A stretch of 64,000 nucleotides of DNA from an uncultured virus (IMG/VR IMGVR_UViG_3300032268_000759). Lineage: Duplodnaviria > Heunggongvirae > Uroviricota > Caudoviricetes. Positions 40,006 to 64,000 of this stretch are shown here, piece after piece (position 1 is the stretch's first letter; the number at the start of each line of letters is the position of its first letter). The position numbers were made by a program, and so were the translations under genes. Location: IMG/VR virus record IMGVR_UViG_3300032268_000759, positions 1-64,000 of that record; one strand, written 5' to 3'. Under the pieces are notes generated by a model that had not been told where the DNA came from, searched no databases, and saw only the letters and a program-made list of their open reading frames with translations.

Positions 40006-40356
40006 ATGAAACCAAGTGAATTTAAACAAATAATTAAAGAATCGGTTAGAGAAGCGATTCAGGATGAACTAAAAGATATACTTTTAGAAGCCCTTAAAAC
40101 TACTAAAACTCAAGTTACAGAACATGTGGTATCTAAAAATATAAATGATGTAATACCAACCGCAGATAAACGTCAAGCTTATATGAATGTATTAAATGAA
40201 ACTGCTGGATTTGCACCAGGCGCTGAAACCATCAGTATGAATACTAATAACATATTCAGACCAACAGGTACTAATACAGCAGCAGAAGGTTCATCATTAC
40301 CACCAGGTGAGGTAGATATGAGTCAAATTATGGGTTTATTAAATCCTAATAAATAA
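40006..40356 (+). CDS. Leader-bearing protein (MKPSEFKQIIKE), putative head-associated
   Basis: Shared leader; LLE/VTE/LNE motifs. Confidence 0.6.
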   Translation: MKPSEFKQIIKESVREAIQDELKDILLEALKTTKTQVTEHVVSKNINDVIPTADKRQAYMNVLNETAGFAPGAETISMNTNNIFRPTGTNTAAEGSSLPPGEVDMSQIMGLLNPNK

Positions 40357-40883
40357 TGGCATACGGTATATTTTACATATATTGCCACCGTAGAAAAACA
40401 GACGGAAAATGCTTTTATATAGGTAAAGGTACCGGATATAGATATAAACATTCATATGGTAGAAATAACTATTGGAATAATATAGTTAATAAATATGGAT
40501 TCACTTGGGAAATATTAGTAAATAACATCACTGAAGAAAAAGCATTTGAACTTGAATCTATTATTTGTAACCAAATCGGTTACGAAAATTTATGTAATAT
40601 AAATCAAGAAAAAGGAAATGGAGGATGGACTAGATCTGATGAAACCATTTTTAAATTAAAAAAACCAAAACCTAAAGGATTTGGTGATAAAATTAGTAAA
40701 ACTAAAACTAAATATATTGTATTGCAATATTCTTTAGATAATATATTTATTAAAGAATGGGATAATACATATGAAGCTGCTGAATATGTAGATGGAAATG
40801 CAACAGCTATAAGAGGATGTTGCACAGGAGAAAGAAAAACAGCTAATGGATATATTTGGAAATATAAATTAAAAACAACATGA
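40356..40883 (+). CDS. GIY-YIG homing endonuclease with NUMOD1-like C-terminus
   Basis: FYIY...FYIGKG..R...E; VLQYSLD..FIKEW....EAA...I..CC.G..KTANGYIWKY. Confidence 0.85.
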   Translation: MAYGIFYIYCHRRKTDGKCFYIGKGTGYRYKHSYGRNNYWNNIVNKYGFTWEILVNNITEEKAFELESIICNQIGYENLCNINQEKGNGGWTRSDETIFKLKKPKPKGFGDKISKTKTKYIVLQYSLDNIFIKEWDNTYEAAEYVDGNATAIRGCCTGERKTANGYIWKYKLKTT

Positions 40884-41287
40884 GCTACGGAGCTAAAAAA
40901 ATATTTCCTATTGATAAGAAACCTAGAGTAGCCATAGGTGTGGGTATTCCTTTTAATCAACCTGGAGTATTTAGTTCTACTTATTTAACTCAAGATGCTA
41001 TTAAAACTAATTTAATTAATTATTTTCTTACTAATGCTGGTGAAAGATATATGAATCCTTCATTTGGAGGAAATTTAAGACAATTCATATTTCAACAAAT
41101 AACTAATGGTAATATTGATTTTTTAAAAGAAGATATTCAAACAAAAATAAATCAATATTTCCCTAGTGTAATAATAGGTAATTTAGATATATTACAAGAC
41201 ACTGATAATAATACTATAACTGTACAATTGTATTATTCAATAGCAGATACAGGTATAAATGATAACTTACAATTAGAATTTCAATAA
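40880..41287 (+). CDS. Baseplate wedge subunit gp25-like
   Basis: IKTNL.N..LTNAGERYMNPSFG.NL..FIF. Confidence 0.9.
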   Translation: MSYGAKKIFPIDKKPRVAIGVGIPFNQPGVFSSTYLTQDAIKTNLINYFLTNAGERYMNPSFGGNLRQFIFQQITNGNIDFLKEDIQTKINQYFPSVIIGNLDILQDTDNNTITVQLYYSIADTGINDNLQLEFQ

Positions 41288-43143
41288 TGGCTGAAAAAAA
41301 AGACATAAGATATATTAATAGAGAATTTGGTGAATTGAAAACAGCGCTTATCAATTATACTAAAACCTATTTTCCAAACACATATAATGATTTTAGTCCA
41401 TCATCTCCAGGTACAGCTTTTATAGAAATGGCTGCTTATGTAGGTGATGTATTATCATTTTATCAAGATAATCAATTTCAAGAAACATTTTTACAATATG
41501 CTAGACAAGCTAATAATTTATATGAATTAGCTTATATGTTTGGCTATAAGCCAAATGTAACAGGTGTATCAACAACTAATATAGATGTATATCAACAATT
41601 ACCTTCTATAACTAGTGGTAGTGTTCAAATACCTGATTTTTCTTATGCTTTATATTTTGCTCCAAATTCATTAGTAAAAGCAAATTTATCAGGTTCAACA
41701 AGTTTCTTAATTCAAGATCCTATTGACTTTACAGTATCAAGTTCAGGAGATCCAACTGAAATAACAGTATATAGTATAAGTGGAGATCAACCTACAAGTT
41801 TCTTATTAAAGAAAACTCGTAAAGCAATTTCATCTACTGTTAATGCAACTACCTTCACTTTTAATGACCCAGTTCCATTTTCAACAGTTGAAATAAATAC
41901 TGAAAATATTGTTGGTATAATAGAAGTAATGGATAGTGATGGTAATCAATGGTATGAAGTAGATTATTTAGCTCAAGAAACAGTATTTGATTCAATAAAA
42001 AATACAAATGTTAATGATCCTAATTTTACATTAAGTAATGATACTCCATATCTATTAAAATTAAAACAAGTACAACGTAGATTTGCTACTCGTTTTATAA
42101 ATACAGGTTCATTACAAATTCAATTTGGATCAGGTATAGCATTTGAAGATGATGAGACAATAGTACCTAATCCATATAATGTTGGTTTAGGTTTACCATC
42201 AGAGCAAAGTAAATTAACCACCGCATACTCACCTTCAAATTTCATATTTACTAAAACTTATGGTATAGCTCCTTCAGCTACTACTTTAACAGTTATATAT
42301 TTAACAGGAGGAGGAATAAGTTCAAATGTTCCTGCTAATACAATTAATACAATAATAAGTACCCCAAGATTTGTAAATTCTAATTTAGCTTCATCAATTA
42401 TAGCTCAAAGTATACTTGGATCAGTAGCTATAAACAATCCAGAAGCAGCTGATGGAGGACAAGATGGAGACACAGTTGAAGAAATAAGACAAAATTCAAT
42501 AGCAAATTTTGCTACTCAACTTAGAACTGTAACTCAAGATGATTATTTAGTTAGAGCTTTATCAATGCCTTCTAAATATGGAGTTATAGCTAAAGCATAT
42601 ATTGAACCAGTAAGAGCGCAAAATATATCAACAGGTGAAATTCCTGCTACTTTAGATTTATATACTTTATCATATGATTCAAATAACAATCTAAGAACAT
42701 GTTCAACTACTTTAAAACAAAATTTATCTACTTATCTATCTCAATATAGAGTAATAGGTGATTCAATTAGAATTAGAGATGGATTTATTATTAACATAGG
42801 TGTAAATTTTGAAATAATAGTACTGCCAGATTATAATAATAATGATATTATACTTGCTTGTATAACTGCATTACAAAATTATTTTGCTATAGATAAATGG
42901 TTAATTAATCAACCAATTGTTTTAAGAGAATTATATATCTTATTAGATAAAATAGAAGGAGTTCAAACTATTAAAACTATAAATATAGTAAATAAAGTTG
43001 GTACTAGTTTAGGATACTCACAATACGCTTATGATATACAAGGTGCTACACAAAATGGTATTATCTATCCTAGTTTAGATCCATCAGTATTTGAAGTTAA
43101 ATATCCTAACACAGATATTCAAGGTAAAATAGTATCATTATAA
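41287..43143 (+). CDS. Baseplate wedge protein gp6 / baseplate J-like
   Basis: NDFS.SSPG..FIEMAAYVGDVLSFY.D; YLTGGG..N; GG.D.D..EEIR; R.VT.DDY. Confidence 0.9.
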   Translation: MAEKKDIRYINREFGELKTALINYTKTYFPNTYNDFSPSSPGTAFIEMAAYVGDVLSFYQDNQFQETFLQYARQANNLYELAYMFGYKPNVTGVSTTNIDVYQQLPSITSGSVQIPDFSYALYFAPNSLVKANLSGSTSFLIQDPIDFTVSSSGDPTEITVYSISGDQPTSFLLKKTRKAISSTVNATTFTFNDPVPFSTVEINTENIVGIIEVMDSDGNQWYEVDYLAQETVFDSIKNTNVNDPNFTLSNDTPYLLKLKQVQRRFATRFINTGSLQIQFGSGIAFEDDETIVPNPYNVGLGLPSEQSKLTTAYSPSNFIFTKTYGIAPSATTLTVIYLTGGGISSNVPANTINTIISTPRFVNSNLASSIIAQSILGSVAINNPEAADGGQDGDTVEEIRQNSIANFATQLRTVTQDDYLVRALSMPSKYGVIAKAYIEPVRAQNISTGEIPATLDLYTLSYDSNNNLRTCSTTLKQNLSTYLSQYRVIGDSIRIRDGFIINIGVNFEIIVLPDYNNNDIILACITALQNYFAIDKWLINQPIVLRELYILLDKIEGVQTIKTINIVNKVGTSLGYSQYAYDIQGATQNGIIYPSLDPSVFEVKYPNTDIQGKIVSL

Positions 43144-43152
43144 TAAAAGAAA

Positions 43153-44277
43153 ATGGCAATATACAAATTATATCCATATAAAGACGCTACTTTATATTCA
43201 TTCTATCCTAATGCAAACATGGGTTTAGATTCTATATTAGAAGTAGGTAATCCATTAACTATAGATGGCTCATCAGGAGTATTTAGAGCATTATTAGCTT
43301 TTGATCAAACTGAAATAAATAGTATTTTAAACACTAGAATTAGTAGTTCATTATGGCAGGCTAATTTAAAATGTTATATTGCTAATGCTGAAGGTGTAGA
43401 TTTTAGTAGTACTGTATTTGCATACCCAGTATCAGGTACTTGGAGTAATGGTACTGGTCAATTTGGAGATAATCCTATAACTACAGATGGTGTTAGTTGG
43501 GGATGGATAAACTATGAAAGTGGAAGTACTTGGAATATATCAACATTCCCAGCTTATGTAACTGCTTCATTTTTAAATTCAAATAAAGGAGGAGGAAATT
43601 GGTATACAGGTTCATCAAATCCTAATTTAAAAATTCCTGCTTCACAATCATTTGATATTAGAAGTGATAAAGATTTAAATATAGTTGTAACAGATACTGT
43701 TAAAGCTTGGTATAGTGGTTCTTTTAACAATGAAGGATTTATCATTAAATGGAGTGATTCTATTGAATTTAGTAATTTAGAAGCAATTCAACCTGATTTA
43801 AAATTCTTCTCAGTAGATACTCACACAATCTATCCTCCTGAATTAGAATTTAGATGGAGAGACTATATAAATAATACAGGCTCATCAGTACAAACCACAT
43901 TAACTACTTCTCAAATATATGCTTCAGTAATTGAAAACCCAGGATTTTTTTATCCTGAGAGTGTAAATAGATTTAGAATAGAATGTAGACCACAATATCC
44001 AACTCGTGTATACCAAACATCTTCAATATATACAAATAATTTTTATTTACCTACAGCATCATATTACGCTATAAAAGATTTAGATACTAATGAATATGTA
44101 ATTGATTTTGATACTAACTATACTCAAATTAGTGCTGATAGTACAAGTAATTATTTTGACATTTATATGAATGGTTTACAACCAGAACGTTACTATAAAA
44201 TTTTAATTAAAACTACAATAAATAATAGTACAATTATATTAGATAATAATTATTACTTTAAAATAATAAATGGATAA
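43153..44277 (+). CDS. Virion structural protein (DNRLRE-like domain)
   Basis: KDATLY...N.G.D.ILEV...RALLAFD...W.NGTG...NEGFIIK...P.LE. Confidence 0.6.
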   Translation: MAIYKLYPYKDATLYSFYPNANMGLDSILEVGNPLTIDGSSGVFRALLAFDQTEINSILNTRISSSLWQANLKCYIANAEGVDFSSTVFAYPVSGTWSNGTGQFGDNPITTDGVSWGWINYESGSTWNISTFPAYVTASFLNSNKGGGNWYTGSSNPNLKIPASQSFDIRSDKDLNIVVTDTVKAWYSGSFNNEGFIIKWSDSIEFSNLEAIQPDLKFFSVDTHTIYPPELEFRWRDYINNTGSSVQTTLTTSQIYASVIENPGFFYPESVNRFRIECRPQYPTRVYQTSSIYTNNFYLPTASYYAIKDLDTNEYVIDFDTNYTQISADSTSNYFDIYMNGLQPERYYKILIKTTINNSTIILDNNYYFKIING

Positions 44278-44627
44278 TGGCTCAAGTTGAACTAAATAAA
44301 AGAGTATTCTCAAAAAATCAATACCAAAAGGTAATTGATACTTCTTTTACTCAATTAGTACCTTTAAATCAAACTAATATAACACCAACATCATCTGTTA
44401 CTGTAGATCAATTTTTTGAATCTTACAATCAATTATTCTTTGATATACCTAAATTTGGAGAAGTAAATTCTCATGAGTACCTTATAAAAACAAGTCAAGA
44501 ATATGTTGGTTCAACATTTCAATCAGATGAAATACAAGCATTAATTGATGAAGTTACATTCTTAAGACAACAAAATCTTGATTTACAGCAACAATATCAA
44601 GTAATAAATAACAACCTACCTAAGTAA
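44277..44627 (+). CDS. Structural-operon hypothetical protein
   Basis: TAATG-coupled. Confidence 0.7.
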   Translation: MAQVELNKRVFSKNQYQKVIDTSFTQLVPLNQTNITPTSSVTVDQFFESYNQLFFDIPKFGEVNSHEYLIKTSQEYVGSTFQSDEIQALIDEVTFLRQQNLDLQQQYQVINNNLPK

Positions 44628-47600
44628 TGGATAGAATAGTTAATATACAAAATGTAGACCCTACAACTTTAGAGTTACAAAACTACTCTTCTGAGGATCA
44701 AAACCTGATTTCAAGTTTTGAATTGGAAAATTCTTTTACTTCTAGTGTTGACTATATAGAATATACAATATATGACTTCAATCAGAATATATTATTATAT
44801 ACTGATCAATTTTCAAATTATTCAATTATAAACAATAAAGTCCAAATAGATCCAGAAAATGATTTAGTATCATATGGATTTGATGAAGGACAATATATAA
44901 CTAATTATAATTTCTTTAAAAATATATTAGGTTCATCTAATGATAATACCTACTATATATCAGAAATAAGTTCAGATAGAACTGAAGTAAGATTAGATAC
45001 TACATTAATTGATAATATTCTTGTAATATCATCATCAACAGATTTCTCAATTCAATTACAACAATCTAATTATTATAAAGATTTTTATTTAAATTTTGGA
45101 AATAATAATTTAGTAATAGCAAATAATGTTTTATTAGATACATCTGATCCTACTAATCCAACTGTATTAATTAAACTATATGAACCATTACCTACTAATT
45201 TTGATTTAAAAACAGAATTATGGGTAGTTGAATCTATAGCTGATCCTTTATCATATCAAATTAGTATTTCATTAATATTTGATAGTGTAGATAGTGGTAT
45301 ACAATTAAATGGTCCTAATTTTAATATATCAACTAAAGATAGGATTAATAATTCTTCTGAATATGCTAGCTTTAATTCAATAACAAATACTACTTCACAA
45401 TTTGGTAGTTCAAGTTTACGTTATCAATTAAATAGTTTATTAGTAGAAAAAGGAATAGAAATAAATATTGATTATAATAGTTATTATAATTTTGTATTTT
45501 TCTCATCAGCTCAAACTCGATTAGAAAATTTCTATTATAAAATGTCATTACTTGAAGAATATACAGCTAATGCTAAAATGTCTTCAACAGGTTCATCAAG
45601 TACTTCATATTATGTTTCATCAAGTTATAACATATATCAAGCTAAAATAGATGATATTATAACTAATTTTGATGGATATGAATATTTCTTATATTTTGAA
45701 TCAGGTAGTAAATGTTGGCCTAAAACTAATGATGAACAACCATATATTAATGCTACAGTAAATTCATTAGTAGTTCAAAATTGGTTAGCTGAACAATATG
45801 CTAGTGCTTCAGACTATGATAATAATTTAAATCCTAATGCTTTAATAAATACTATTCCTAGTTATCTAAGAGATGATCCTTCAAATTCACAATATGAATT
45901 ATTTGTGGAAATGGTAGGTCAACATTTTGATAGTATCTGGGTTTATATTAAAGATATAGATAATAAATATAACGCTGATAATCGTTTAGATTATGGTGTG
46001 TCTAAGGATTTAGTAGCAGATGTATTAAGAGATTTAGGTGTTAAAATATATCAAAATAACTTCTCTGTAGATGATTTATATACATCATTTATAGGAATAA
46101 CCCCAGGTGGTTCATCTTTACCTTCAACAGGAAATGAATTAATTACTAACTATGTAACAGCTTCTCTATCACCTTATGTACTACCAGGATATGTTATCAC
46201 AGGATATGTTAATGGTAAACCTATTATAGTACCATTAGATGATATTAATAAATCAATATATAAACGTATATATCATAATGTACCTTACTTATTTAAGAAA
46301 AAAGGTACTATTGAAGGACTAAGAGCATTAATAACTTTATATGGTATTCCTGATACTATTTTAAGGATAAATGAATTTGGAGGTAAAAATAAAGATAATT
46401 CTAATGACTGGGATCAATGGCAAAACCAATATAATTACTCATTATATTCATCACTTGTAGATAATTATCCTACATCTGAAAGTGGAAGTGTTTATGGTAG
46501 TGGTACATATGGTACTTCAGTTTATACCTCAACTTCAAATAAATCAGGGGTTGTTATTATTCCTTGGGATAAATTATCAACAACTAATACCAGCCCAGCA
46601 TCAATAGCTTTTAGATTTAAAACAGAAGGTGTTTCTTTTTTCTATCCTAGTCAATCATTATTATTTAATGAATTATCATTAGGTGGTAATGCTTTTAGTT
46701 TAGTATTAGAACGCTCAGAATCAATATATGGAACCTACTCAGGTTCAGGTGCTCCAATCTCACCAACATATGATTGGGGTACATTAAAATTAATACTACC
46801 AGATACATCAGTATCATGTAGTGTTTATTTACCTTTATTTAATAGTGGTTGGTGGTCAGTATTAGTAACTCGAACTAATTCAACTCACAGTTTATATGTT
46901 AAAAACAAAATAAATAATGGAGAGGATGGAAACCAATTAGGTTTTCAAGCATCATCTAGTGTGATATCTTCAAATCCAAGTTGGAATAATGTTGGTAATT
47001 CATATTTAGGTGGATTCAGATCAGGAGTAACCAGTAGTCTTATATCAGGTAAAATTTATACTCCATTTTTAGGTACTTTTCAAGAATTTAGATATTATAG
47101 TTTACCACTAAATGAAGGTACATTTGATGATTTTGTAATGAATCCTTACTCTATAGAAGGAAATACAATTGATGGTGCTCAATCATCAGTTGAAATTCTT
47201 AAATTAAGAGCACCATTAGGTTCAATATTAGATATAGATGTATCACAAAGTGCAAGAACATCAGTTCATCCAAGTTTAACTGTTGTTCCTACTACTTCAT
47301 CATTTTATAATGGTACTAACAATTATACTATAACAGGTAGTTTTCAATTTGTATCAAATACTGAAACTATATTTTTAGATCAATTCCCAGCTGGTATAAG
47401 AAATACTATTAATAATAAAATTAAAATAGCTCAAACTATTTTACCAACGGGAGATACATTATCACCTTATATTAGAATACAACAAGATTCACCTGTAAGT
47501 GGTAGTTATACTAAAGATTTAAATTTATTAGAAGTAGCATTTTCCCCACAAAATGAAATAAATGAGGATATTATAGCTCAATTAGGGTATTTTAACTTAG

Positions 47601-49636: not shown

Positions 49637-49663
49637 TATTTATTAACATATAAACAAATACAA

Positions 49664-50317: not shown

Positions 50318-50330
50318 AATTAAATAAAAT

Positions 50331-51371: not shown

Positions 51372-51374
51372 TGA

Positions 51375-52301: not shown

Positions 52302-52306
52302 AAAAT

Positions 52307-52768
52307 ATGCATTTATTAGAATTAGTTACGACAATTGAAGATTTAATTGATGATGAGAATTTTGATTCAACTCAATATGAAGGGTACATATACATGACCA
52401 CTAACTTGGAAACAAATCGTAGTTATATAGGTAAGAAAAATTTCTTCCATAAAACCAATGTTAAATTAGGTAAAAAAGAATTAGCTAACTTACCAGTTAC
52501 ACGTGGTAGAACCAAACAAACTAAATTAGTAGTTAAACCAAGCGATTGGAAAACATATTATGGTTCATCACAGGAAATAAAAGAGGATCTTAAAAAATAT
52601 CCTAAAGATAAATTTGTACGAGTATTATTAAAACTTTGTAAATCAAAAAAATCTTTAACTTATTATGAAAACAAATATTTATTCCAATATGGAGTACTAG
52701 AAGATCCAAAACAATGGATTAACGATAATATCCAGGGTCGTTTTTTCTCATCTGATACCTTAGAATAA
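52307..52768 (+). CDS. GIY-YIG (Seg-like) nuclease
   Basis: GYIYMTTN...YIGKK...WKTYYGSS...F.R..L...E...NDNI. Confidence 0.8.
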   Translation: MHLLELVTTIEDLIDDENFDSTQYEGYIYMTTNLETNRSYIGKKNFFHKTNVKLGKKELANLPVTRGRTKQTKLVVKPSDWKTYYGSSQEIKEDLKKYPKDKFVRVLLKLCKSKKSLTYYENKYLFQYGVLEDPKQWINDNIQGRFFSSDTLE

Positions 52769-52795
52769 AAGATATATATTTATAACAAAATAACT

Positions 52796-53113
52796 ATGAA
52801 AATACAAGACTTACGTAAACTAATCAAAGAAGAAATACAAAACGTATTAAATGAAGCAACTGACTTCAAATCATTTACTGTTCTTCAACCAGGTGGATCT
52901 TGGTATGAAGTTAAATATGGTGCGGGTAAATCATTTATAGCTGCAGGTGTTGGCAAACCTGAAATGACATTAATAGGTTCAACTCCAGAAGAAAAAAAAG
53001 TTTTTGATGAAATAGCACAAATGATTGGAGGTCAAGTTCAAGAAAATGATGTATTTGGATTTGAACTATCTATTCCAGCAACTAAATTTAAAGAATTATT
53101 TAATGTACAATAA
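52796..53113 (+). CDS. Leader-bearing protein (MKIQDLRKLIKEEIQNVLNE)
   Basis: Shared leader; follows late-type motif. Confidence 0.7.
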   Translation: MKIQDLRKLIKEEIQNVLNEATDFKSFTVLQPGGSWYEVKYGAGKSFIAAGVGKPEMTLIGSTPEEKKVFDEIAQMIGGQVQENDVFGFELSIPATKFKELFNVQ

Positions 53114-53118
53114 CTAAT

Positions 53119-53670
53119 ATGAAAAAACAAATATTAAACGAAGAATTTCGTAGAATGAAAAAAATTGCAGGTTTAATCACTGAAAACGAAATTAGTGAAG
53201 AAACCCTAACTGAAAACAAATACAGAGCATCAGATTTTCCTGAAGTAACTGGATTTGAAGAAGATAATAATAGGATAATCATTACTTTTTCTGACAATAC
53301 TAAAGATTTAATTGAACCAAGAAATTTTGCTAATAAAGAAGTAGGATACTCTAAATTCCTTGAGTTATTAAATACTATGGATACTGATCCTAAAGCTAAA
53401 CAAGCAGTAAGTGATTTTTTAGAAATCAAAAGATTTAATGTAATTAGTACAAGTGACATTAATAAACTTTTAGCTGATAATGGTGTAGATGAAGAATATT
53501 ATGCAGGTATGGGTGGTAAAGAAATTGAAGGAGGAACAGAGGAATGGTTAGATATATTATCTGATATTACTGGTAAAGACGCTTATAGTGGAGAATTCAG
53601 TAAAAAAGATGATATGAAAATACAAACATTCATGAATCATCTAAGTCGTTTAGGTATTGAAGTAGTATAA
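53119..53670 (+). CDS. Leader-bearing acidic protein (LNEEFRRMKKIAGLITE)
   Basis: Shared leader with 59007. Confidence 0.7.
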   Translation: MKKQILNEEFRRMKKIAGLITENEISEETLTENKYRASDFPEVTGFEEDNNRIIITFSDNTKDLIEPRNFANKEVGYSKFLELLNTMDTDPKAKQAVSDFLEIKRFNVISTSDINKLLADNGVDEEYYAGMGGKEIEGGTEEWLDILSDITGKDAYSGEFSKKDDMKIQTFMNHLSRLGIEVV

Positions 53671-53721
53671 AAAATATAAGTAAGCTTGGTTCGCCAAGCT
53701 TTCTTTATTATATTACTGCTA

Positions 53722-54645
53722 ATGGTAAACCAACTATTAGTTACATTAATAAATTCTGTACTTGGTACAGGTAAGTCAACATCAAGAGGTAATTATGCTT
53801 ATACTTGCCCGAGTTGCCACCACCATAAACCAAAACTAGAGATATGTTTAGATGAAACTAGTCCTGATTTTCAAAAATTTGGATGTTGGGTTTGTAAGGT
53901 TAAAGGTAAAAAACTAATTAATTTATTTAAATTAGTTGGAGCTCACTCAGATGTGATGTTAGAGCTTAAATCATTAGTTAAAAACGTCACACCCGTTGAA
54001 CAAAGACAACTTGAGGAAATTAAAGTTATATTACCTGAAGAGTTTAAATCTGTACTTAATTCTACAACATTATCATCAAAACAAGCTTTGTCATATCTAA
54101 AAGGACGAGGCATAACAGAAGATGATATTATTAAATATAATATAGGTTATTGTGAGTCAGGACTATATTCAAATATGATTATTATACCATCATATAATGA
54201 ATCTGGTTCTTTAAATTATTTTGTTGGTAGAAGTTTTATACATGACTCAGATAGAAAACTTAACCCAGATGTATCTAGAGATATAATACCATTTGAAATA
54301 TTCATTAACTGGAATTCACCTATAATATTATGTGAAGGAATGTTTGATGCTATAACAATTAAACGAAATGCTATACCATTATTAGGTAAAAATTTACAGT
54401 CAAAATTAATGAAAAAAATTGTTACTTCAACTGTAAAGAAAATATATATAGCATTAGATAAAGATGCTATAAAACAAGCACTTGATTTTTGTGAACAATT
54501 AATAAATGAAGGAAAAACAGTTTACTTAGTAGAATTAACAGATAAAGATCCAAATGAAATAGGTTTTAAACAATTTACAACACTAATCCAAAACACGTTC
54601 CCGTTAACCTATTCAGGACTGTTAGAAAAAAAATTATCATTATGA
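53722..54645 (+). CDS. DNA primase (Zn finger + TOPRIM)
   Basis: CPSC...CWVC; YL..RGI; IIIP; YFVGR; CEGMFDA; ALDKDA; KDPNE; start revised to the ATG after promoter 53685. Confidence 0.9.
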   Translation: MVNQLLVTLINSVLGTGKSTSRGNYAYTCPSCHHHKPKLEICLDETSPDFQKFGCWVCKVKGKKLINLFKLVGAHSDVMLELKSLVKNVTPVEQRQLEEIKVILPEEFKSVLNSTTLSSKQALSYLKGRGITEDDIIKYNIGYCESGLYSNMIIIPSYNESGSLNYFVGRSFIHDSDRKLNPDVSRDIIPFEIFINWNSPIILCEGMFDAITIKRNAIPLLGKNLQSKLMKKIVTSTVKKIYIALDKDAIKQALDFCEQLINEGKTVYLVELTDKDPNEIGFKQFTTLIQNTFPLTYSGLLEKKLSL

Positions 54646-55409
54646 GTCAAATAAAACACTCTTACAATCGTATCTTAGAAATATCAGACGATCACAAACA
54701 AATCACATTGCCTGATTCAAGATATTATAGACGAAATGGAGAATATTATCCAAGTGTTACATATGTTTTAGGTTATTATCCAAAAGGTAAATTTTTTGAA
54801 GATTGGTTAAAAAAAGTTGGTTACTCAGCTGAACATATTGTTAAAAAAGCAGCTGATGAAGGTACTCAAGTTCATGAGATGATTGAGGAATATCTTGAAG
54901 GTAAAGAATTAAGTTATTTAAATCAACATGGTGCTCCATCAATGCATCCTGATGTTTGGGTAATGTTTTTAAAATTTGTTGAATTTTGGGAAACATATAA
55001 TCCAAAACTTATTGAAACTGAAGTACATTTATTTTCAGACGAGCTTAAAGTAGCTGGTACATGTGATATGATTTGTGAAATTGATGGTAAGTTATGGTTA
55101 ATAGATTTTAAAACATCAAATCATATCCAATTAACATATCAATTACAAACAGCAGTATATGGTCAATGTTACAAAGAATGTTATGGAAAAACTATTGATA
55201 ACTATGGTGTGTTATGGTTGAAATCATCTAAACGTAAACTTAATAAAGAAAAAATGTCTGGTAAAGGTTGGGAAATAGTAGCATCAGAACGTACTCATGA
55301 AGAAAATATTGAAATATTTAAAACTGTGAAACGTTTATTTGATTTAGAAAATCCAAACAGTTCACCAATATTTACTGAATTTAAAACAACTGCTAAACGA
55401 ACTTTATAG
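54642..55409 (+). CDS. PD-(D/E)XK exonuclease
   Basis: YPSVT, GTQVH..IE, AGTCD, IDFKTS, QT.VY. Confidence 0.85.
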   Translation: MSQIKHSYNRILEISDDHKQITLPDSRYYRRNGEYYPSVTYVLGYYPKGKFFEDWLKKVGYSAEHIVKKAADEGTQVHEMIEEYLEGKELSYLNQHGAPSMHPDVWVMFLKFVEFWETYNPKLIETEVHLFSDELKVAGTCDMICEIDGKLWLIDFKTSNHIQLTYQLQTAVYGQCYKECYGKTIDNYGVLWLKSSKRKLNKEKMSGKGWEIVASERTHEENIEIFKTVKRLFDLENPNSSPIFTEFKTTAKRTL

Positions 55410-55475
55410 TTCTAATTTTCATAAATATTTATAGGAGACTTGGCATCCCCAAGTCTCTTCATTATATTTACATCG

Positions 55476-56300
55476 ATGATAAAACTTGTAGACCTATTAT
55501 TAGAAATATCCCAAAATAAAATGGTAGTCATGGCTGGTGGAGCTGGGGCAGGTAAATCGTATTTACTTAATAAAGTAAAATCTAAAGAACCAAACATAAA
55601 AATACTTAATCCTGATTCATATATTGAGGACAAAAATAGTCCAATGTATAATAACTTAACAAAAGCATCATCACAAATTGATGATGTGGATGTACCTAAT
55701 GCTATAAGTAGAGGTGAATCATTTATTTGGGACACAACAGCATCTAATGCTGCTAAAATGATTGGTGGTGAATATCGTCGTAAACAAGTAAAAGGAATAT
55801 TAAATACTGAAGGTTATGATGAGATGATGGTAATGGTTTATACACATCCTATAGTGTCATTTTTACGTAACTTTAAACGTGAACGTAAAGTACCTACAGT
55901 AGGTGTATTATCAACTTGGAATAATGTTTATGGTAATATAGACACATATAAGTCGAAATTAGGCGATAATTTTATATTGTATCAAGCGCCTGATAAAGAA
56001 TACGCTAAAGAAATACAGGCGTTTAACTCAGCGATTTCTAACGGAAAATTAAATGACTATTTCTCAAACTTGTTATCAACAGGTGAATATGCTTCAACAT
56101 TTAGAAAAGACAAACCTGAACCACAAACACCAGAAGAAATAGAAAAAGCTGAAAAAGCTAAAGAACAATCAAAAGCTTTAGTTAACACTCAGATTGATAG
56201 ACTTGAAAAAGAGTTTATGAATATTGAAAATAAAATCAAAGATTCTATCATAACTGATGAGAATGAAGTAGTAAACAGAATAGTTAACTTTATAAAATGA
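55476..56300 (+). CDS. P-loop kinase (zeta-toxin/AAA_33-like) with leader MIKLVDLLLE
   Basis: MAGGAGAGKS, NPD, IWDTTA, RN.KRER.VP. Confidence 0.75.
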   Translation: MIKLVDLLLEISQNKMVVMAGGAGAGKSYLLNKVKSKEPNIKILNPDSYIEDKNSPMYNNLTKASSQIDDVDVPNAISRGESFIWDTTASNAAKMIGGEYRRKQVKGILNTEGYDEMMVMVYTHPIVSFLRNFKRERKVPTVGVLSTWNNVYGNIDTYKSKLGDNFILYQAPDKEYAKEIQAFNSAISNGKLNDYFSNLLSTGEYASTFRKDKPEPQTPEEIEKAEKAKEQSKALVNTQIDRLEKEFMNIENKIKDSIITDENEVVNRIVNFIK

Positions 56301-57757
56301 GTTTAGGTAAATACTTAGCAGAAATTATAATAGAACCAACTCCTAAAAAAGTGGCTTTATATCCTGGTGCTTTTAAACCACCACATAAAGGACATTTTGA
56401 GTTAGTTCAACGTCTATCTAAAGTATCAGATGAAGTATTAGTCATTATATCTCCTATAGCTCGTGATGGTATCACAGCTGAACAATCTTTAAGTGCTTGG
56501 AAATTATATTTACCATTTTTACCTAAAGCAAAAGTAGTAATATCAAATGTATCTTCTCCTGTATCATATGTTTATGATTATGTAAAATCAAATCCACAAC
56601 AAGATATTCAAGTAGCATTTGGTAAAGATGAAGGTGAAAGATATAAAGCCTTTTTAAACAAAGAAAAATATCCAAATGTAAAAGTTTATGATGCTGGTAA
56701 TATAGGAAGTTTAAGTGCATCTGGTTTACGTGCAGCTATAAAATCTAATAATCCAGTTGATATAGCTAAATTTTTACCACAAGGTATAGAAGTAAATGAT
56801 TTTTTAAATGCTTTAAAACTTAGTCCAAGAACTGAACCTACATTTAATAGTATAAATGAAAATATATCTGACCCAGATTTTACAAATGCATTAGCTAGTA
56901 TAACTAAACATTATGTTGATAATGGATACAATGTAAAACCATTACCTAAAGTAAAAATAATAAGTAATGATGAAGTAAACGCTTCTAATATGTTAGGTAA
57001 AACAGCATATTATGATCCAACAAATAAATCAATTACTTTATTTACAGCTGGGAGACATCCAAAAGATATATTACGCTCATTCTCACATGAGATGATACAT
57101 CATATACAAAACTTAGAAAATAGATTAAATAATATTACTACTACCAACACAACTGAAGATGATTATTTAAGCCAATTAGAACAAGAAGCTTACTTAAACG
57201 GTAATATGAATTTTAGGAATTGGGAGGATGGTATTAAAAATAAGGTTATGAACGAACAACAAACAACAAATAAATACCGTATATTCTGTGATATGGATGG
57301 TGTATTAGTAGACTTTGACAAAGGTTATGAAGATTTAACAGGTTTACATACCAAACATGTTGATGTGCAAGATAGTAATGAGTTTTGGAACAAATTTAGA
57401 GAAGGATTAAAAGAAAAAAACATAGGTGAATTAGAATATTGGTCTAGATTAGACTGGATGTCTGATGGAAAAGAATTATGGAACTATATTAAACAATATA
57501 ACCCATATGTGTTAACAGCTCCATCTCGTGATCCTCAATCAAGAGAAGGTAAACGAGCTTGGGCTGAACGTTTAGATAATATGAAAAATATTTATTTTAA
57601 AGCAGCAGCATTTAAATCTGAATATGCTGCTCCAAATCGAATACTTATTGATGATAGAGCAGATACCATTGAAAAATGGAATAAAAATGGAGGTATAGGT
57701 ATATTACATACATCTACATCTGATACAATTGAACAACTTAAAAAATTAGGACTATAA
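56297..57757 (+). CDS. Three-domain protein: HxGH nucleotidyltransferase + HExxH zincin + HAD 5'(3')-nucleotidase-like
   Basis: PGAFKPPHKGH...SASGLR; RSFSHEMIHH...EQEAY; CDMDGVLVDF...LTA...LIDDR...W...GG.GILH. Confidence 0.85.
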   Translation: MSLGKYLAEIIIEPTPKKVALYPGAFKPPHKGHFELVQRLSKVSDEVLVIISPIARDGITAEQSLSAWKLYLPFLPKAKVVISNVSSPVSYVYDYVKSNPQQDIQVAFGKDEGERYKAFLNKEKYPNVKVYDAGNIGSLSASGLRAAIKSNNPVDIAKFLPQGIEVNDFLNALKLSPRTEPTFNSINENISDPDFTNALASITKHYVDNGYNVKPLPKVKIISNDEVNASNMLGKTAYYDPTNKSITLFTAGRHPKDILRSFSHEMIHHIQNLENRLNNITTTNTTEDDYLSQLEQEAYLNGNMNFRNWEDGIKNKVMNEQQTTNKYRIFCDMDGVLVDFDKGYEDLTGLHTKHVDVQDSNEFWNKFREGLKEKNIGELEYWSRLDWMSDGKELWNYIKQYNPYVLTAPSRDPQSREGKRAWAERLDNMKNIYFKAAAFKSEYAAPNRILIDDRADTIEKWNKNGGIGILHTSTSDTIEQLKKLGL

Positions 57758-58721: not shown

Positions 58722-58758
58722 TTTTCCTATGTTTCACCTAATAAATTAAATATGGATA

Positions 58759-58980: not shown

Positions 58981-59006
58981 CATATTTATATATAAATAAT
59001 AATACA

Positions 59007-59819
59007 ATGAACAATCAATTTAAAAGAATGCAAAAACTCGCTGGTCTAATTACTGAAGGTGAAGCTGCATACGAATATGAAAAAGGTAAAGAAGCTGGGG
59101 AAAAAGCTGAAAAGAAAAAAATGAAAAAATCTGAACTTAAAAAACAGATTAAAGAAATGATTTTAGCTGAGATAGATATTGATTTATCTAACACTGATAG
59201 TTTTTATGATTTCTTAGCTGAAGGAGAATTAACAGCTGATTCATTATATAAGATGTTTGAAAAAGAAGGTCTAATTGATGATAGACGTGAATATGATGAA
59301 GAAGATTTAATGGCTGCTTACCCTGGTTTATCTCAATCTGAAGCTGAAAAATTAGTAAATAAAATATCAGATGGGCTAAACGAAGCCAAGAAAAAGAAAA
59401 AAGATAAAGACAAAGAAGTTGAAGACGTTGAAATAGACACAGACGTTGATATGGGTGACAAAATGGATATGGGTGCCGAAATGAACACCACACCAGTTCC
59501 AGCAGCATCAGACGTTCAAAAAGAACTAATGGACGCGTTAGAAGCAGCTAAAGCATCAGGCGACGAAAAGTTAGTTCGTCAAATCGGAAATGCGTTAACA
59601 TACTTCACTCGTAGTCAAGTATCTAAAGACGAAAATCCACCATCAATGAATGAGGAAATAAGTATGGAAGCTATAGATAGACTAGAAGGTTTAGCTAATA
59701 TGCAAGATTTAGCTGTACTAAAAGCTAAACTTCGTATCTTATCTTCAGATTGGATGCAAGATGGATTTGAGAAAGAAGATATTATTGAATATATAACTGA
59801 ACTTATAAACCAAATATAA
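59007..59819 (+). CDS. Leader-bearing acidic protein (putative prohead core/internal protein)
   Basis: FKRMQKLAGLITE; internal MKKSELKKQIKE; LNE/MNE motifs. Confidence 0.7.
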   Translation: MNNQFKRMQKLAGLITEGEAAYEYEKGKEAGEKAEKKKMKKSELKKQIKEMILAEIDIDLSNTDSFYDFLAEGELTADSLYKMFEKEGLIDDRREYDEEDLMAAYPGLSQSEAEKLVNKISDGLNEAKKKKKDKDKEVEDVEIDTDVDMGDKMDMGAEMNTTPVPAASDVQKELMDALEAAKASGDEKLVRQIGNALTYFTRSQVSKDENPPSMNEEISMEAIDRLEGLANMQDLAVLKAKLRILSSDWMQDGFEKEDIIEYITELINQI

Positions 59820-59824
59820 ACAAA

Positions 59825-59992
59825 ATGAAACAAGAGTTATTTGAAAAAATGCATCAAACATGGGATATGTTTGTAGTAGAGCACAATGGTACAAGTAAAG
59901 CTGCTCAAGGTCGCGCAAGAAAATTATCAAGCGAACTAAAAAAGTTAGCTGCTGAATACAAAAAAGTATCAGTTGCTGAAGCGAAAGCATAA
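59825..59992 (+). CDS. Histone H1-like (Hc1-type) small protein (55 aa, not in track)
   Basis: KAAQGRARKLSSELKKLAAEYKKVS matches the Bacteroidota Hc1-like KAAGxRARKxSxELxK pattern. Confidence 0.75.
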   Translation: MKQELFEKMHQTWDMFVVEHNGTSKAAQGRARKLSSELKKLAAEYKKVSVAEAKA

Positions 59993-59993
59993 T

Positions 59994-60024
59994 GAAGGTG
60001 GAGGACTTATATAGTCCTCCCTTC
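59994..60024 (+). terminator. Hairpin after Hc1-like gene
   Basis: GAAGG-T-GGAGGACT / AGTCCTCC-CTTC. Confidence 0.55.
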
Positions 60025-60045
60025 ATATTTAAAATAAAAAATACT

Positions 60046-61140
60046 ATGAAAAAATCAGAATTAAAAGAATATATTAAAGAACTTTATTCATCTAAAGATG
60101 AAACATTAAATGAAGAGTTTAATCCAGCTGACAAAATAATGATGGATGTTCCATTATTTATTCGTTTATTAGAATATGCTCGTGAAGATGCTAAAACTGA
60201 TATGGATTTACATAATATAACTGAAAAAGCTATTAGTTTAAGTACAGAAGATAAAGTATTAACTATGTCTGACTACAATAGTATTGTAGGTGGTTTAAAT
60301 GAAGGAATAGCTGGATCTCCTGGTTTATCTCAAATAGCAGATGAAATATACGCTAAGATGCCTAAAGAAGGATCTTATGATGCTTTTAAAGAAACTCAAA
60401 AGCATATTAAAGTATATAACTTAAGTCCTGAAGAAGAAAAACAAGTATATGCTATCATTAGAGACAAAGAAAATGACAATCTAGCAGAATCAGCTATTGG
60501 TGAAAAGAAATTAACATCTGCTGAGTTAAAAAAACGTGAAGAAATAGTTAAATCAATGAAAGATACTTTTAAAGGTCCTAAAGCAGCTATGTATGCTATA
60601 GCAACTGATAAAGCTAAAAGAGTAGCTGAAGATTTAGATATTGGTCATGAAGATGATGAGCCAGCAATGTTAAAAGCTGATGTTTATCGTATAATGGAAT
60701 ACGCTGAAGAATTATATAAAATGCTAAATACATTTGATCAAATATCAGGTGAAGTAGATTTTCCAGATTGGTGGCAATCAAAAATTCATATAGCAGCAGA
60801 AAATATGGATAAAGCTAAACATTATTTAGAATTTGAAATGAAACAATCTAGTATGGATAATAAGGTTAATATGTCTGCTTTAGCAGAAGTTATAGCTAAA
60901 AAATTAAAAGAATCAGCAGGTGGTACTTTAGATTTTGCTAGTGGTAAATTATCTAAACCAACCCCAAAAGAAGGTGAAGTATACTTAAAAGACTTAAAAC
61001 CAGGTGACAAATTTTCTACTGGTAAATTAGAATATGTAGTAGTAAATTCTGAAAAGGGTGATCGTGGAGTAGGAGTAAAATACTCAGATGGAACTGGCAA
61101 TATGAATTTCAGAGGAGATGTGATTGTTAAAAAGAAATAA
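60046..61140 (+). CDS. Leader-bearing multi-module protein (MKKSELKEYIKE)
   Basis: Modules separated by LNE/LAE/VAE/LKE; DVPLFIRLLEYARED; A.MYAIATDKAK; PDWWQSKI. Confidence 0.75.
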   Translation: MKKSELKEYIKELYSSKDETLNEEFNPADKIMMDVPLFIRLLEYAREDAKTDMDLHNITEKAISLSTEDKVLTMSDYNSIVGGLNEGIAGSPGLSQIADEIYAKMPKEGSYDAFKETQKHIKVYNLSPEEEKQVYAIIRDKENDNLAESAIGEKKLTSAELKKREEIVKSMKDTFKGPKAAMYAIATDKAKRVAEDLDIGHEDDEPAMLKADVYRIMEYAEELYKMLNTFDQISGEVDFPDWWQSKIHIAAENMDKAKHYLEFEMKQSSMDNKVNMSALAEVIAKKLKESAGGTLDFASGKLSKPTPKEGEVYLKDLKPGDKFSTGKLEYVVVNSEKGDRGVGVKYSDGTGNMNFRGDVIVKKK

Positions 61141-61164
61141 TCAAATTTCTATAAATTAAAAATA

Positions 61165-61602
61165 ATGACTAAACAAGAACTAATAGATAAAATTAAGTCA
61201 ATAGCTAAAGAAAAATATGAGCCACAAATTACATTTGTGTCTGGTATGAAATTTACAGCTATTCAAGCATATCCTAAATTGCATGATGTGCTTGTTGAAT
61301 TAATGACTAATGCTTATGAAATATTTGTTGTTGATGTTGAATGGGTAGCCCCAAAACCAACAACATTTAGAATTCAATTAGCTAATGGTGAATATTTTTT
61401 CTTAACTAATACAGATAGAACTTGGATAGCAACAGTAGAAGGTAAAAAATTCTATATGCTAAATTTAAATGAAAAACAAGATGCTATTAATTCTATAGCT
61501 CGTGTGTTAAGATACGGTAAAACTAAATCAGAAATTGAAGCAACAAAAACAACTGAAAAAACTTCAACTGAAGAAATCCCAGAAGAATTACCAGCAGCCT
61601 AA
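61165..61602 (+). CDS. Hypothetical protein (leader-like MTKQELIDKIK)
   Basis: ORF. Confidence 0.7.
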   Translation: MTKQELIDKIKSIAKEKYEPQITFVSGMKFTAIQAYPKLHDVLVELMTNAYEIFVVDVEWVAPKPTTFRIQLANGEYFFLTNTDRTWIATVEGKKFYMLNLNEKQDAINSIARVLRYGKTKSEIEATKTTEKTSTEEIPEELPAA

Positions 61603-61613
61603 AATAAAATAAA

Positions 61614-62828
61614 ATGGATGTATTAGATTTGTTTTTTAAAAAATATTCTTATAAATTTCCTAAAGGATATCCTGACATGAATAATGAGCAGGATATCTTA
61701 TTACTTGAAAATATATTAAATGAACTAGGTGTAGATCTAAATGAAGGATCAGTTATGAATAATTCTGCTAAAGCTATTAAGAAAATTCTTAATTCTCCAG
61801 AAGGAAAACAATATAATTTTAAATTACAAACTGCAAGTAATAGATTAGGTAATTTAGATAAAATATCTAAAGAAGATTTTTTAAATATACTTAACTCTGT
61901 ATTTCCAAATATTAAAATTATAGTACATGCCCCAGGTGAAGGTCCTAATATTAAGCCTAAAGGTAGTTCTAAATTTAATATGTATGAATTCAATACTGAA
62001 GATGGTAAGGTACAAATTATATTATCTGGTGGAGCAAATGAAGGAGAAAAATACGAACAATCATTTACTAGTGATTTAAAAGCATCAGCAGGTCAATCAT
62101 TAGAAAGTATTGAAAATGAAAATGTTAAAAAATTATTTCAATCATTAAATATTGATCCTAAAAATTTAACACCTGAGGATATTGATTTTGCTGGTACGGC
62201 TGATACAAAACGATCTCTTAGTTTTACCAACCCAGAGAATATTGGTAAAAAAATAGCTGATGTTATTATAAAATATAAAGGTAAAGAATATTATATATCA
62301 TTAAAAAATATTTCAGGACATACTTTCTATAATGGAGGTAATGTTCCATTTATAGTATTTGATGAAAATAATAAAGTAGTCTTTGATAAATCTAAATATA
62401 ATAATAATGAAATAATTAAAACATTATTTGAAATATTTAATATAGATATTAATAAAGTAACCCAAGGATTAAATGAATATATAGCTGGAGAAGGTAACAT
62501 TTCTAATAGTTTTGAACCAGTTAATAATATTAATGTTAATGCTGTTAAAAATATGATAACATCAGGTTTTGGATATGGTTACTATTATGTTAAAGAAAAA
62601 AAAGATGGTTTAAGTGTAATATCTCTTTTAACACAAGAAGACGCGTATAGAGCTATAGGAGATATATCATCTGCTTCTATAAAATATCCTAATTCTGAAA
62701 CAAAATCTCTAACTATTAAAGTACCTTTAGATAGTGAAATATTTGGAAAGGTAGATTGTTTAATAGAAATAAGAAATACAACAGGTAATGTTTTACCATT
62801 ATCTCTTAAAATAAAAACTAACAAGTAA
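61614..62828 (+). CDS. Leader domain + putative PD-(D/E)XK nuclease
   Basis: SYKFPKGYPD...LNELGVDLNE leader; GEKYE...IADVII...YISLK. Confidence 0.55.
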   Translation: MDVLDLFFKKYSYKFPKGYPDMNNEQDILLLENILNELGVDLNEGSVMNNSAKAIKKILNSPEGKQYNFKLQTASNRLGNLDKISKEDFLNILNSVFPNIKIIVHAPGEGPNIKPKGSSKFNMYEFNTEDGKVQIILSGGANEGEKYEQSFTSDLKASAGQSLESIENENVKKLFQSLNIDPKNLTPEDIDFAGTADTKRSLSFTNPENIGKKIADVIIKYKGKEYYISLKNISGHTFYNGGNVPFIVFDENNKVVFDKSKYNNNEIIKTLFEIFNIDINKVTQGLNEYIAGEGNISNSFEPVNNINVNAVKNMITSGFGYGYYYVKEKKDGLSVISLLTQEDAYRAIGDISSASIKYPNSETKSLTIKVPLDSEIFGKVDCLIEIRNTTGNVLPLSLKIKTNK

Positions 62829-62839
62829 TATTTATCAAC

Positions 62840-63703
62840 ATGGATAAATTAAGACAAATAATTAGAGAATCGTTAAAAAACCGCGCTTTAAATGAAGATT
62901 GCGGTTGTGGTTGCCATGGTAAGTGTGGTGATGATGCTCCTGTTTTAAATGAAAATTTAGCACGTAAACCATTACTAAGTGAACACCTACAATACCATGT
63001 TGATAATAAAAAACCACTAACTGAAAACACATTCCGTTATGGTTCCTCAGCATTCCTTGATTTATGGAAAGAAGCAAGAAAATTATACTCACGTAACTTA
63101 CTTGAAGTTGCTGGTTTAGATAAAGATATTATAGTTGAAACTGACTTAGGTGAATATGGTATATATGAAGGTCAAGAAGTACCATTAGATTTACCTATGA
63201 TTGAAGAAGGTCAAATGTTAGATAACTATGAAGTTGATTTTTTTCATACTAAAGCTAATGTATATGCTAATATAGAAATACCTAGTGAAAATCCAACATT
63301 TGAAGATGATATTCAAATAAAAGGAACAGGTAAAACTGAAGAAGAAGCTTTTGAAGATTTAAAACAAAATTACAATAATTACAAGAAAACAGGAATAAAT
63401 GAAGCTAAGTATCAAGGTAAAGAGGTTCAACTTAATAAACCTAAACGTGGTGGATCAAAGAAATTTTTTGTATATGTTATGAATCCTAAAACTAAAAAAG
63501 TTAAAAAAGTACAGTTTGGAGCAGCAGGTGGAGGTCAAAACTTAGCAGTTAAACTTAGAGATCCTAAAGCACGTAAAGCATTCGCTGCACGCCAAAACTG
63601 TGATAAGAAAAAAGACAGAACAACACCTGGTTACTGGAGTTGTAATATAGGTAGATATTGGAAATCATTGGGCGGTAGCTCAAATTTTAGCGGGTATTGG
63701 TAA
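62840..63703 (+). CDS. Leader-bearing multi-module protein with conserved basic C-terminal myophage domain
   Basis: MDKLRQIIRES..LNE-DCGCGC; INE-AKYQGKEV.LNKP...KKFFVYV...FG...RKAFAARQNC...YWSC. Confidence 0.75.
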   Translation: MDKLRQIIRESLKNRALNEDCGCGCHGKCGDDAPVLNENLARKPLLSEHLQYHVDNKKPLTENTFRYGSSAFLDLWKEARKLYSRNLLEVAGLDKDIIVETDLGEYGIYEGQEVPLDLPMIEEGQMLDNYEVDFFHTKANVYANIEIPSENPTFEDDIQIKGTGKTEEEAFEDLKQNYNNYKKTGINEAKYQGKEVQLNKPKRGGSKKFFVYVMNPKTKKVKKVQFGAAGGGQNLAVKLRDPKARKAFAARQNCDKKKDRTTPGYWSCNIGRYWKSLGGSSNFSGYW

Positions 63704-63704
63704 T

Positions 63705-64000
63705 ATGAAACTATCAGAATTAAAACAAATAATTAGAGAAGAATACAGTTCAGCTTCAAAATTATATGAAATTGAAGGTGTTATTGCCATTGATACAGAT
63801 ACAGCATTTCATAAACAAATTATGTCTGATGTTCGCGCTATTAAAGGAGTTACAATTGTAAAGGATTATATTTATGACCCAGCAGGAGCATCAAGTAATA
63901 GAGGATATGCTAATTTAAATATAAAAATTGATCCATCACCATTTCCAGGTATGCAAGCTAAAGAAATTGTTGATATAGTAATTGATGATATTAAAAACAT
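63705..64000 (+). CDS. Leader-bearing protein (MKLSELKQIIREE), truncated by window edge
   Basis: Open frame to the end of the window. Confidence 0.7.
   Translation, partial: MKLSELKQIIREEYSSASKLYEIEGVIAIDTDTAFHKQIMSDVRAIKGVTIVKDYIYDPAGASSNRGYANLNIKIDPSPFPGMQAKEIVDIVIDDIKN

Follow-up and report, generated by a model that had tools for sequence, protein, structure and literature searches.

IMGVR_UViG_3300032268_000759 is an IMG/VR virus record of 154,840 bp carrying direct terminal repeats, and its first 64 kb, hereafter the window, belong to a T4-like phage of Flavobacteria. In this phage, otherwise unrelated proteins, whose payloads fall into different BLAST families, share a few short N-terminal peptides of 10-20 amino acids (the leaders). 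The tagged set comprises about 15 genes, which lie from 52.8 to 72.2 kb; the window contains eight of them. Comparative sequence analysis leads us to consider, with moderate confidence, that the class A, B and C leaders of this region are probably capsid-targeting propeptides similar to those of T4 and cut by the prohead protease. The genes of this phage are nearly all on the plus strand and its G + C content is about 29%. Its closest cultured relative is Flavobacterium phage vB_FspM_immuto, with a capsid-protein identity of 56%. A terminase query matched at least 598 IMG/VR contigs, and the survey of leaders in relatives was carried out on 80 related loci, mostly short. A megablast search of cultured phages with the 52-64 kb region gave no match, and the immuto phages were the only matches of a tblastn search with the class B leader.

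Leader classes and the proteins that carry them

Three leader classes were found in this phage: class A (M-K-x-S-E-L-K-x-I-I-K-E...L-x-E(20)), class B (F-K-R-M-Q-K-L-A-G-L-I-T-E) and class C (M-I-K-L-x-D-L-L-x-E), the members of the latter (55476, 65002 and 65644, genes being designated by their start coordinate) forming a separate similarity cluster. A fourth one, class D (M-D-N-F-D-L-R-K-Y-L-A-E-N-K-L), is seen in relatives. Regular expressions for the classes, applied to every ATG of the whole 155-kb genome in the three forward frames, retrieved 16 leader copies (nine of class A, class B at four loci and three of class C), all within 40.0-71.6 kb and all in frame with real open reading frames (ORFs). 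When the N-termini (21 residues) of the 216 genome ORFs were compared without a seed and scored by 12-mer similarity, nine pairs scored at least 35 against 0.9 expected from shuffled N-termini, and five scored at least 40 against 0.05 expected. The dense core of the similarity graph corresponds to the class A set of a first-pass annotation of this DNA, to which 64055, 66840, 67235 and 71559, beyond the window, are now added. The peptides quoted in that annotation were retrieved where it had placed them, for class A at 40006, 52796, 60046 (where an ATG lies in frame within ORF 59992), 62840 and 63705, as well as internally in ORF 59007 (at 59121), and for class B at 53119 and 59007; MIKLVDLLLE at 55476, which it had listed as a short form, in fact represents class C, of which 65002 and 65644 are the other members.

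For class A, 45 non-redundant leaders of this phage and its relatives give the consensus M-K-K-S-E-L-K-x-(I/L/Y)-I-(K/R)-E-E-(I/L)-x-x-x-L-x-E, the logo being marked by L6, I10 (44/45), E12, L18 and E20 and conservation ending after residue 20. An [LI]xE tripeptide closes at aligned residue 20, a position outside the scoring window, in 20 of these 45 leaders against 9 of 355 family representatives (p = 2e-20). When a class A matrix omitting the initiator Met was run over the 80 related loci, 105 of its 115 matches fell at residues 1-4, which represent only 1.5% of all positions; many of these N-terminal matches correspond to the terminase and the remainder are spread over many different proteins. 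The syntenic region of immuto, whose host is Flavobacterium sp. LMO8, carries the same leaders, among others on gp095, gp094, gp093, gp083, gp080 and gp072. The leaders are conserved as amino acids and not as nucleotides: the codons used for Leu, Ser, Arg and Ile are interchanged freely among the copies, and a nucleotide-level element was rejected on this ground.

Among the tagged genes of the window, all on the plus strand, class A leaders open 52796..53113 (105 aa; residues 1-20, nt 52796-52855, ending L-N-E), whose payload is without known family, 60046..61140 (364 aa; nt 60046-60114, ending L-N-E), 62840..63703 (287 aa; nt 62840-62896, without the first two residues of the class and ending L-N-E) and 63705..64000, a 116-aa gene that continues past the window to 64055 (nt 63705-63770, ending L-Y-E). 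The longest ORF over 60046 begins at 59992, yet a homologue begins at the leader (MKKSDFIKLV...KLNE/EFNPADKI, the slash marking the leader end). After its leader, 62840 displays a CxCxC motif, 11 L-x-E sites against 2.9 expected and a basic C-terminal domain. Class B leaders open 53119..53670 (183 aa; residues 1-22, nt 53119-53184, with the motif F-R-R-M-K-K-I-A-G-L-I-T-E, a copy of the scaffold C-terminal tail ending I-T-E), where the leader is retained in the immuto phage homologue, and 59007..59819, a 270-aa acidic protein (nt 59007-59057, ending I-T-E) in which the class B leader is followed by an internal class A copy with its own Met (nt 59121-59156). The class C leader M-I-K-L-V-D-L-L-L-E (nt 55476-55505) opens 55476..56300, a 274-aa Zeta-toxin-like P-loop kinase (Pfam Zeta_toxin, 1.8e-8); it precedes the Walker A strand and is present in 33 of the 38 readable homologues among the 120 best. 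Beyond the window, 64055-65005 matches ART-PolyVal (36.3 bits for a cut-off of 31.2; 1.2e-8) and is the only place where polyvalent-protein domains were matched, none being found in the other payloads of the tagged set, most of which have no assigned family. Two leaderless replication genes inside the region (53722..55409), a DNA primase (53722..54645, plus strand; PHROGs 9.3e-39) and a PD-(D/E)XK exonuclease (54642..55409, plus strand; PHROGs 4.8e-47), constitute internal negative controls.

The 52307-52768 ORF has a PHROG “NAD synthetase” match, together with matches to homing-endonuclease families. Some homologues of 55476 are named nicotinamide riboside kinase by the Joint Genome Institute (JGI), and the immuto homologue of the adjoining gene 56297 is annotated as the nicotinamide mononucleotide (NMN) adenylyltransferase NadR; the P-loop kinase 55476 and 56297 may form an NAD+ salvage pair.

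Leaders are exchanged between homologous payloads. With payload families defined as BLAST families on residues 26 to end, about 40 distinct tagged families were present in the 80 loci sampled, about 23 with class A (terminase excluded), 13 with class C and 9 with class B. One payload family may bear class C or D, A or C, or A or D, the homology beginning directly after the L-x-E of the leader. A Cys-rich domain carries class C in two phages and class D in two others, with homology from the leader end onward, and a basic DRCLRIADRK domain is associated with several different leaders and C-terminal modules, including the ADP-ribosyltransferase in this phage. In family 4, represented here by 71559, a variable propeptide of 20 to about 100 residues is followed by a conserved xE/MAR junction, and some homologues end with a scaffold-type tail. 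The AlphaFold2 (AF2) model of 71559 displays a separate, lower-confidence helix (residues 6-21) ahead of a winged-helix domain, and a fold search with this model gave weak winged-helix matches only (best E = 0.29); family 4 may be a small terminase or an internal head protein, and the scaffold-type tails argue for a head protein. No small terminase was recognisable, and in many relatives a predicted lipoprotein or membrane protein gene, here at genome 72224-72772, stands between family 4 and the large terminase (TerL). Gene content upstream of TerL is hypervariable: the 173 genes of the 2.5-10 kb interval belong to 92 families, each present at a median of 3-5 loci, against a median of 20-57 in the head module.

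Head module and predicted processing sites

A T4-type head module with Terminase_6N, Portal_T4, Peptidase_S77, acidic scaffold and Gp23 is located just beyond the window. It comprises a T4-type large terminase (genome 72769-74346), the portal (PF07230, Portal_T4, 6.9e-67), an acidic gp22-like scaffold (genome 80055-81152) and the major capsid protein (MCP; PF07068, Gp23, 3e-77). The gp21-like protease that the first-pass annotation proposed to look for elsewhere in the genome is encoded 15 kb past the window, between the portal and the scaffold and Gp23 genes, as a Peptidase_S77 prohead protease (genome 79243-79857; Pfam PF03420, 1e-30; PHROG 207 head maturation protease, 2.3e-56). Its N-terminus begins L-I-E, as in T4 gp21 (PMC9026906). 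The MCP propeptide contains the invariant motifs LLE9, LLE35, (I/M)LE51 and LVxE60, the last one about 44 residues ahead of VQPM (about 49 in T4 gp23), where homology with T4 predicts the maturation cut.

The leaders are linked to the prohead by the scaffold itself, whose C-terminus (...N-R-F-Q-K-L-A-G-I-I) is the class B motif and is conserved in all 24 scaffold homologues examined. Besides the scaffold, class B-type peptides were found N-terminally in 12 proteins, internally in 6 and C-terminally in 7, and in 16 of the 18 non-terminal copies (L/I/V)-I-(T/N)-E comes next. Class A has counterparts in the head module as well: a small head protein (genome 77135-77767) starts with a class A-like helix ending L-K-E, directly followed by a copy of about 20 residues of the predicted mature MCP N-terminus (T-G-G-G-T-A-G-A-A-F...), an arrangement kept in relatives, and the head protein 77793 has an internal class A-like helix conserved in relatives. 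Classes A and B are found within one polypeptide in 59007, in 67235 and, among relatives, in several small proteins and family 4 members, a co-occurrence only suggestive at the thresholds used (odds ratio 3.0, p = 0.066). A complex prediction for the scaffold and the class A protein 52796 gave a score of 0.00, hence no answer, and counts neither for nor against binding.

The [LI]xE tripeptide is concentrated in the leader positions of this region, its Glu falling at residues 9-24 in 19 of 31 genes against 45 of 185 elsewhere (Fisher p = 7e-5). The first-pass annotation had made its proposal depend on (I/L)xE being more frequent here than in replication proteins, and the overall density is indeed 1.96 per 100 residues in the region against 1.45 in replication proteins (1.49 against 1.20 relative to shuffled sequences), the excess lying in the leaders.

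We propose that, late in infection, the N-terminal amphipathic helix of the tagged proteins would let them assemble together with the scaffolding core of the prohead, class B docking by imitation of the C-terminal tail of the scaffold, which is assumed, by analogy, to bind the capsid protein. The gp21-family (S77) protease would then cut after the Glu of the (L/I/V)-x-E closing each leader, the predicted sites being residues 10-12 and 18-20 in class A, the I-T-E that follows class B and residue 10 in class C, and the cleavage would release the mature protein within the capsid. We infer all of these steps, from docking and cleavage to retention in the virion and delivery to the host, and injection of the cargo is less certain. 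In a more ambitious form of this scheme, put forward tentatively and with low confidence, a small code of interchangeable tags would operate, each imitating a different piece of the prohead core (the coat-binding tail of the scaffold for class B, the helix of 77135 and 77793 for class A); any protein, such as ADP-ribosyltransferases, kinases or nucleotide-metabolism enzymes, could be loaded in this way, released by the protease and brought in together with the DNA, and copy number or position in the head would depend on the tag chosen.

Doubtful members and alternative readings

The bare 8-mer ATATTTAT occurs 36 times in the window against 27.6 +/- 5.4 expected and is not enriched. The longer AATATTTATAA form is real and precedes 40006, 52796, 59007, 62840 and 71559 as well as portal, sheath-region and tape-measure genes, and 38 of the 54 plus-strand copies of the late-type motif lie at most 45 nt from a start codon. 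The former proposal that many of the tagged genes follow a late-type motif is reduced to four in-window leader genes placed directly after it (40006, 52796, 59007 and 62840), the copies being located at 39993..40000 (plus strand, the core of AATATTTATAA ahead of 40006), 52776-52783, 58982-58989 and 62828-62835. The primase gene 53722 and the kinase gene 55476 are preceded by an early-type TTATATTTAC motif with a hairpin. These early-type units have a fixed order: a G+C-rich hairpin (e.g. GGCTCC...GGAGCC), (G)TTATATTTAC, often GTAATAA about 5 nt downstream, and a start codon 15-25 nt further on. They are found at 13525-13563, 30580-30618, 53686-53721 and 55440-55475, with many others in 20-27 kb, and their composition looks like a combined terminator and promoter cassette.

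Two genes listed in the first-pass annotation are probably outside the tagged set. The first one, 40006..40356 (plus strand), encodes a 116-aa protein whose 30-residue N-terminal helix matches the class A core. Its homologues, of constant length, form more than 130 clusters in which this helix is the best-conserved part, and a tblastn search of cultured phages with 40006 gave no match. Previously considered as variable cargo, it turned out to belong to the core genes of the baseplate module and to be strictly syntenic, with identical neighbours in 17 of 17 relatives sampled, where it directly precedes the gp25-like (40880) and gp6-like (41287) baseplate genes. Its C-terminus carries a second conserved peptide (L-P-P-G-E-V-D-M-S-Q-I-M-G-L-L), separated from the helix by a variable low-complexity linker. 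In the present genome a homing-endonuclease-like ORF (40356-40883; GIY-YIG-like N-terminus, weak HNH/intron-nuclease PHROG matches) is inserted between 40006 and the gp25-like gene, and it is not at that position in any of the 17 relatives examined. The second gene, 56297..57757 (plus strand), encodes a protein of 486 aa, cytidylyltransferase-like and HAD-like, which is extended N-terminally by 17 residues (MSLGKYLAE...); the peptide is positioned as formerly described and matches no leader family, only KYLAE being common to class D of relatives.

The idea of a T4-like address tag coupled to a protease site, already formulated in the first-pass annotation, is retained in part. The S77 protease, the scaffold-tail identity, the class A-like helices of head proteins, the swapping of leaders, the hypervariability and the ART-PolyVal and Zeta-like payloads speak for it, and several observations weigh against it. 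Gene 40006 belongs to the core of the tail module, and both 55476 and 56297 are located behind an early-type promoter and resemble enzymes of nucleotide or NAD metabolism. The 12-residue core of class A is not fully specific, as the large terminase begins with it (21 bits); this terminase N-terminus was itself rejected as a leader, its helix aligning to T4 gp17 from residue 108 (ancestral) and being without L18-x-E20. Past residue 25, leader-bearing and other proteins have the same [LI]xE density (p = 0.42), by which a general (L/I)xE enrichment inside the payloads was rejected, and the earlier suggestion that the same tripeptides separate internal modules does not hold as a general rule; it does apply to the tandem leader copies of 59007 and 67235, which are, with 62840 and 59992, the exceptions to the lack of an internal excess. 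The positions L6/I10/I14/L18 and E12/E16/E20 of class A also match a plain four-residue helical period, so that L-x-E could arise as a side effect of helix amphipathicity and constitutes no independent proof of a cleavage site. Finally, no virion proteomics, N-terminal mapping or packaging assay on this phage or immuto was found in the literature searched for them. As observations apart, the tape-measure-like protein (genome 102986-105127) contains an internal class A look-alike (Q-S-E-I-K-Q-I-Q-K-E-E-V, residue 620) and a class B look-alike (G-G-F-Q-K-L-A-G-V-V, residue 166), both possibly due to chance.

Other functions of the leaders were considered. The tagged proteins could be auxiliary parts of the core or scaffold, like gp22, gp67 and gp68 of T4, cut up and expelled at maturation with nothing delivered to the host. 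The acidic, helical and low-complexity nature of 59007, 59992, 67235 and 71559, the scaffold tail closing some family 4 homologues and the high L-x-E density of 62840 and the head protein 76278 would fit such a role, as would the similar degradation of T4 core proteins (PMC5694885). We nevertheless hold it to be unlikely, compact enzymes or basic domains being tagged as well (ART-PolyVal, Zeta-like kinase, Cys-rich domain), internal L-x-E being not enriched over the whole set, and the hypervariable gene content being better suited to arms-race effectors than to assembly parts. It is also quite improbable that the leaders have no sorting role and are generic amphipathic helices, maybe serving oligomerisation or efficient translation starts in an AT-rich genome, kept alike by frequent cassette recombination at conserved 5' ends. 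The location of all 16 copies in one fifth of the genome, beside the head genes, is at odds with this, as is the lack of any leader among the 68 ORFs of 0-27 kb and the 34 of 111-139 kb; the identity between class B and the scaffold tail with I-T-E after it, the fixed E20 and the replacement of one class by another on the same payload would be left unexplained. Several traits do agree with it, namely the MK(K) start and K/E/I/L-rich helix expected from an AT-rich genome, the ancestral similarity of the terminase N-terminus, the fossil Met codons of internal copies, which show cassette fusion, and a slight excess of identical codons (74 against 60.9 expected).

A recognition peptide for another machine, either a modifying enzyme as with the leaders of ribosomally synthesized and post-translationally modified peptides (RiPP-like), a phage GroEL/GroES or a metabolic complex, appears very unlikely. 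A FAD oxidoreductase, a DUF6884 protein and an AAA_28 ATPase, whose roles are unclear, are conserved and flank the cluster in all relatives, and GroES/GroEL look-alikes, read from ORF translations only, are encoded by the phage, both points in its favour; no specific partner enzyme co-varies with the leaders, however, and the prohead is indicated instead by the match of class B to the scaffold tail and by the leader copies of head-module proteins. The GroES-like and GroEL-like pair is located at genome 134681-136616, and queuosine-pathway-like genes were recognised, from ORF translations only, at about 123-128 kb of the genome.

Relation to known phage systems

In T4, the internal proteins IPI, IPII and IPIII and Alt have propeptides of 10-19 residues, which direct these proteins to the scaffolding core and are then cut off by gp21 (Mullaney and Black 1996, as reviewed in PMC9026906, PMC3012670, PMC5694885). 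In this capsid targeting sequence (CTS; MKTYQEFIAE, PMC8442874), targeting involves residues 4 and 7, and processing residues 8 and 10; a Glu-to-Asp change blocks the processing and leaves the targeting intact (PMC9026906). Internal proteins differ among T-even phages, and reviewers have suggested that the CTS may serve as a loading device in general (PMC9026906, PMC3012670, PMC5694885); Alt is a packaged, gp21-processed ADP-ribosyltransferase (PMC5512222, PMC5694885). The Flavobacteria phage shares with T4 an N-terminal peptide of 10-20 residues ending (L/I)-x-E on unrelated proteins, a gp21-family protease in a T4-type head module, an ADP-ribosyltransferase among the tagged proteins and a hypervariable gene set, as at the T4 internal protein locus (PMC9026906, PMC3012670). 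The class A spacing hydrophobic-x-x-hydrophobic-hydrophobic-x-Glu is that of Y4, F7, I8 and E10 of the T4 CTS, shifted by two residues; apart from this spacing and the MK start, the two have no significant sequence similarity, the peptide being too short for a significance test. The systems differ in that at least three interchangeable leader classes are present here (four in the clade) on about 15 tagged genes compared with about four in T4, in their hosts, here Bacteroidota, and in that the present one is known from its sequence alone. Class B is moreover a copy of the scaffold tail, placed N-terminally, internally or C-terminally. The T4 CTS itself resembles the N-terminus of T4 gp22, and tags imitating an end of the scaffold may therefore be an old principle.

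Class B repeats the last 12 or so residues of the scaffold (F/W/M-Q/R-K-L-A-G-I/L), a likeness to the C-terminal coat-binding tail of phage scaffolding proteins, from which it differs in that the cargo carries the peptide in an N-terminal or internal position, where an added T-E or N-E turns it into a protease site. As in the polyvalent proteins (Iyer, Burroughs, Anand, de Souza, Aravind 2017, PMC5512222), an ART-PolyVal effector is encoded beside packaging genes and is predicted to be carried into the host along with the DNA; the domains are here mostly separate small genes, each with its own clip-off tag, and not parts of a single giant multidomain polypeptide. In the giant phages phiKZ, 201phi2-1 and SPN3US (PMC5694885), a gp21-related protease likewise cuts after Glu and the propeptides of head and ejection proteins are thought to target the prohead, but these are 80-160 residues long, protein-specific and have an (A/S/G)-x-E motif, whereas short common modules are used here. 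The tags are new in their multiplicity and interchangeability, as are the copy of the scaffold tail, the number of tagged genes and the host group, and a literature search for the motif strings, Immutovirus proteomics and such a tag system found no paper describing it.

If this interpretation is true, what T4 uses for three or four internal proteins would be a general modular loading system in very abundant aquatic phages. Mimicry of the scaffold tail would provide a concrete and testable docking mechanism, a step still unclear even for the T4 CTS, and the leaders would be natural, short and self-removing tags for packaging foreign proteins into the heads of Bacteroidota phages. They would also give access to a large and mostly unannotated pool of candidate first-strike proteins, involved in anti-defence or host takeover, that could be recognised directly from their sequence.

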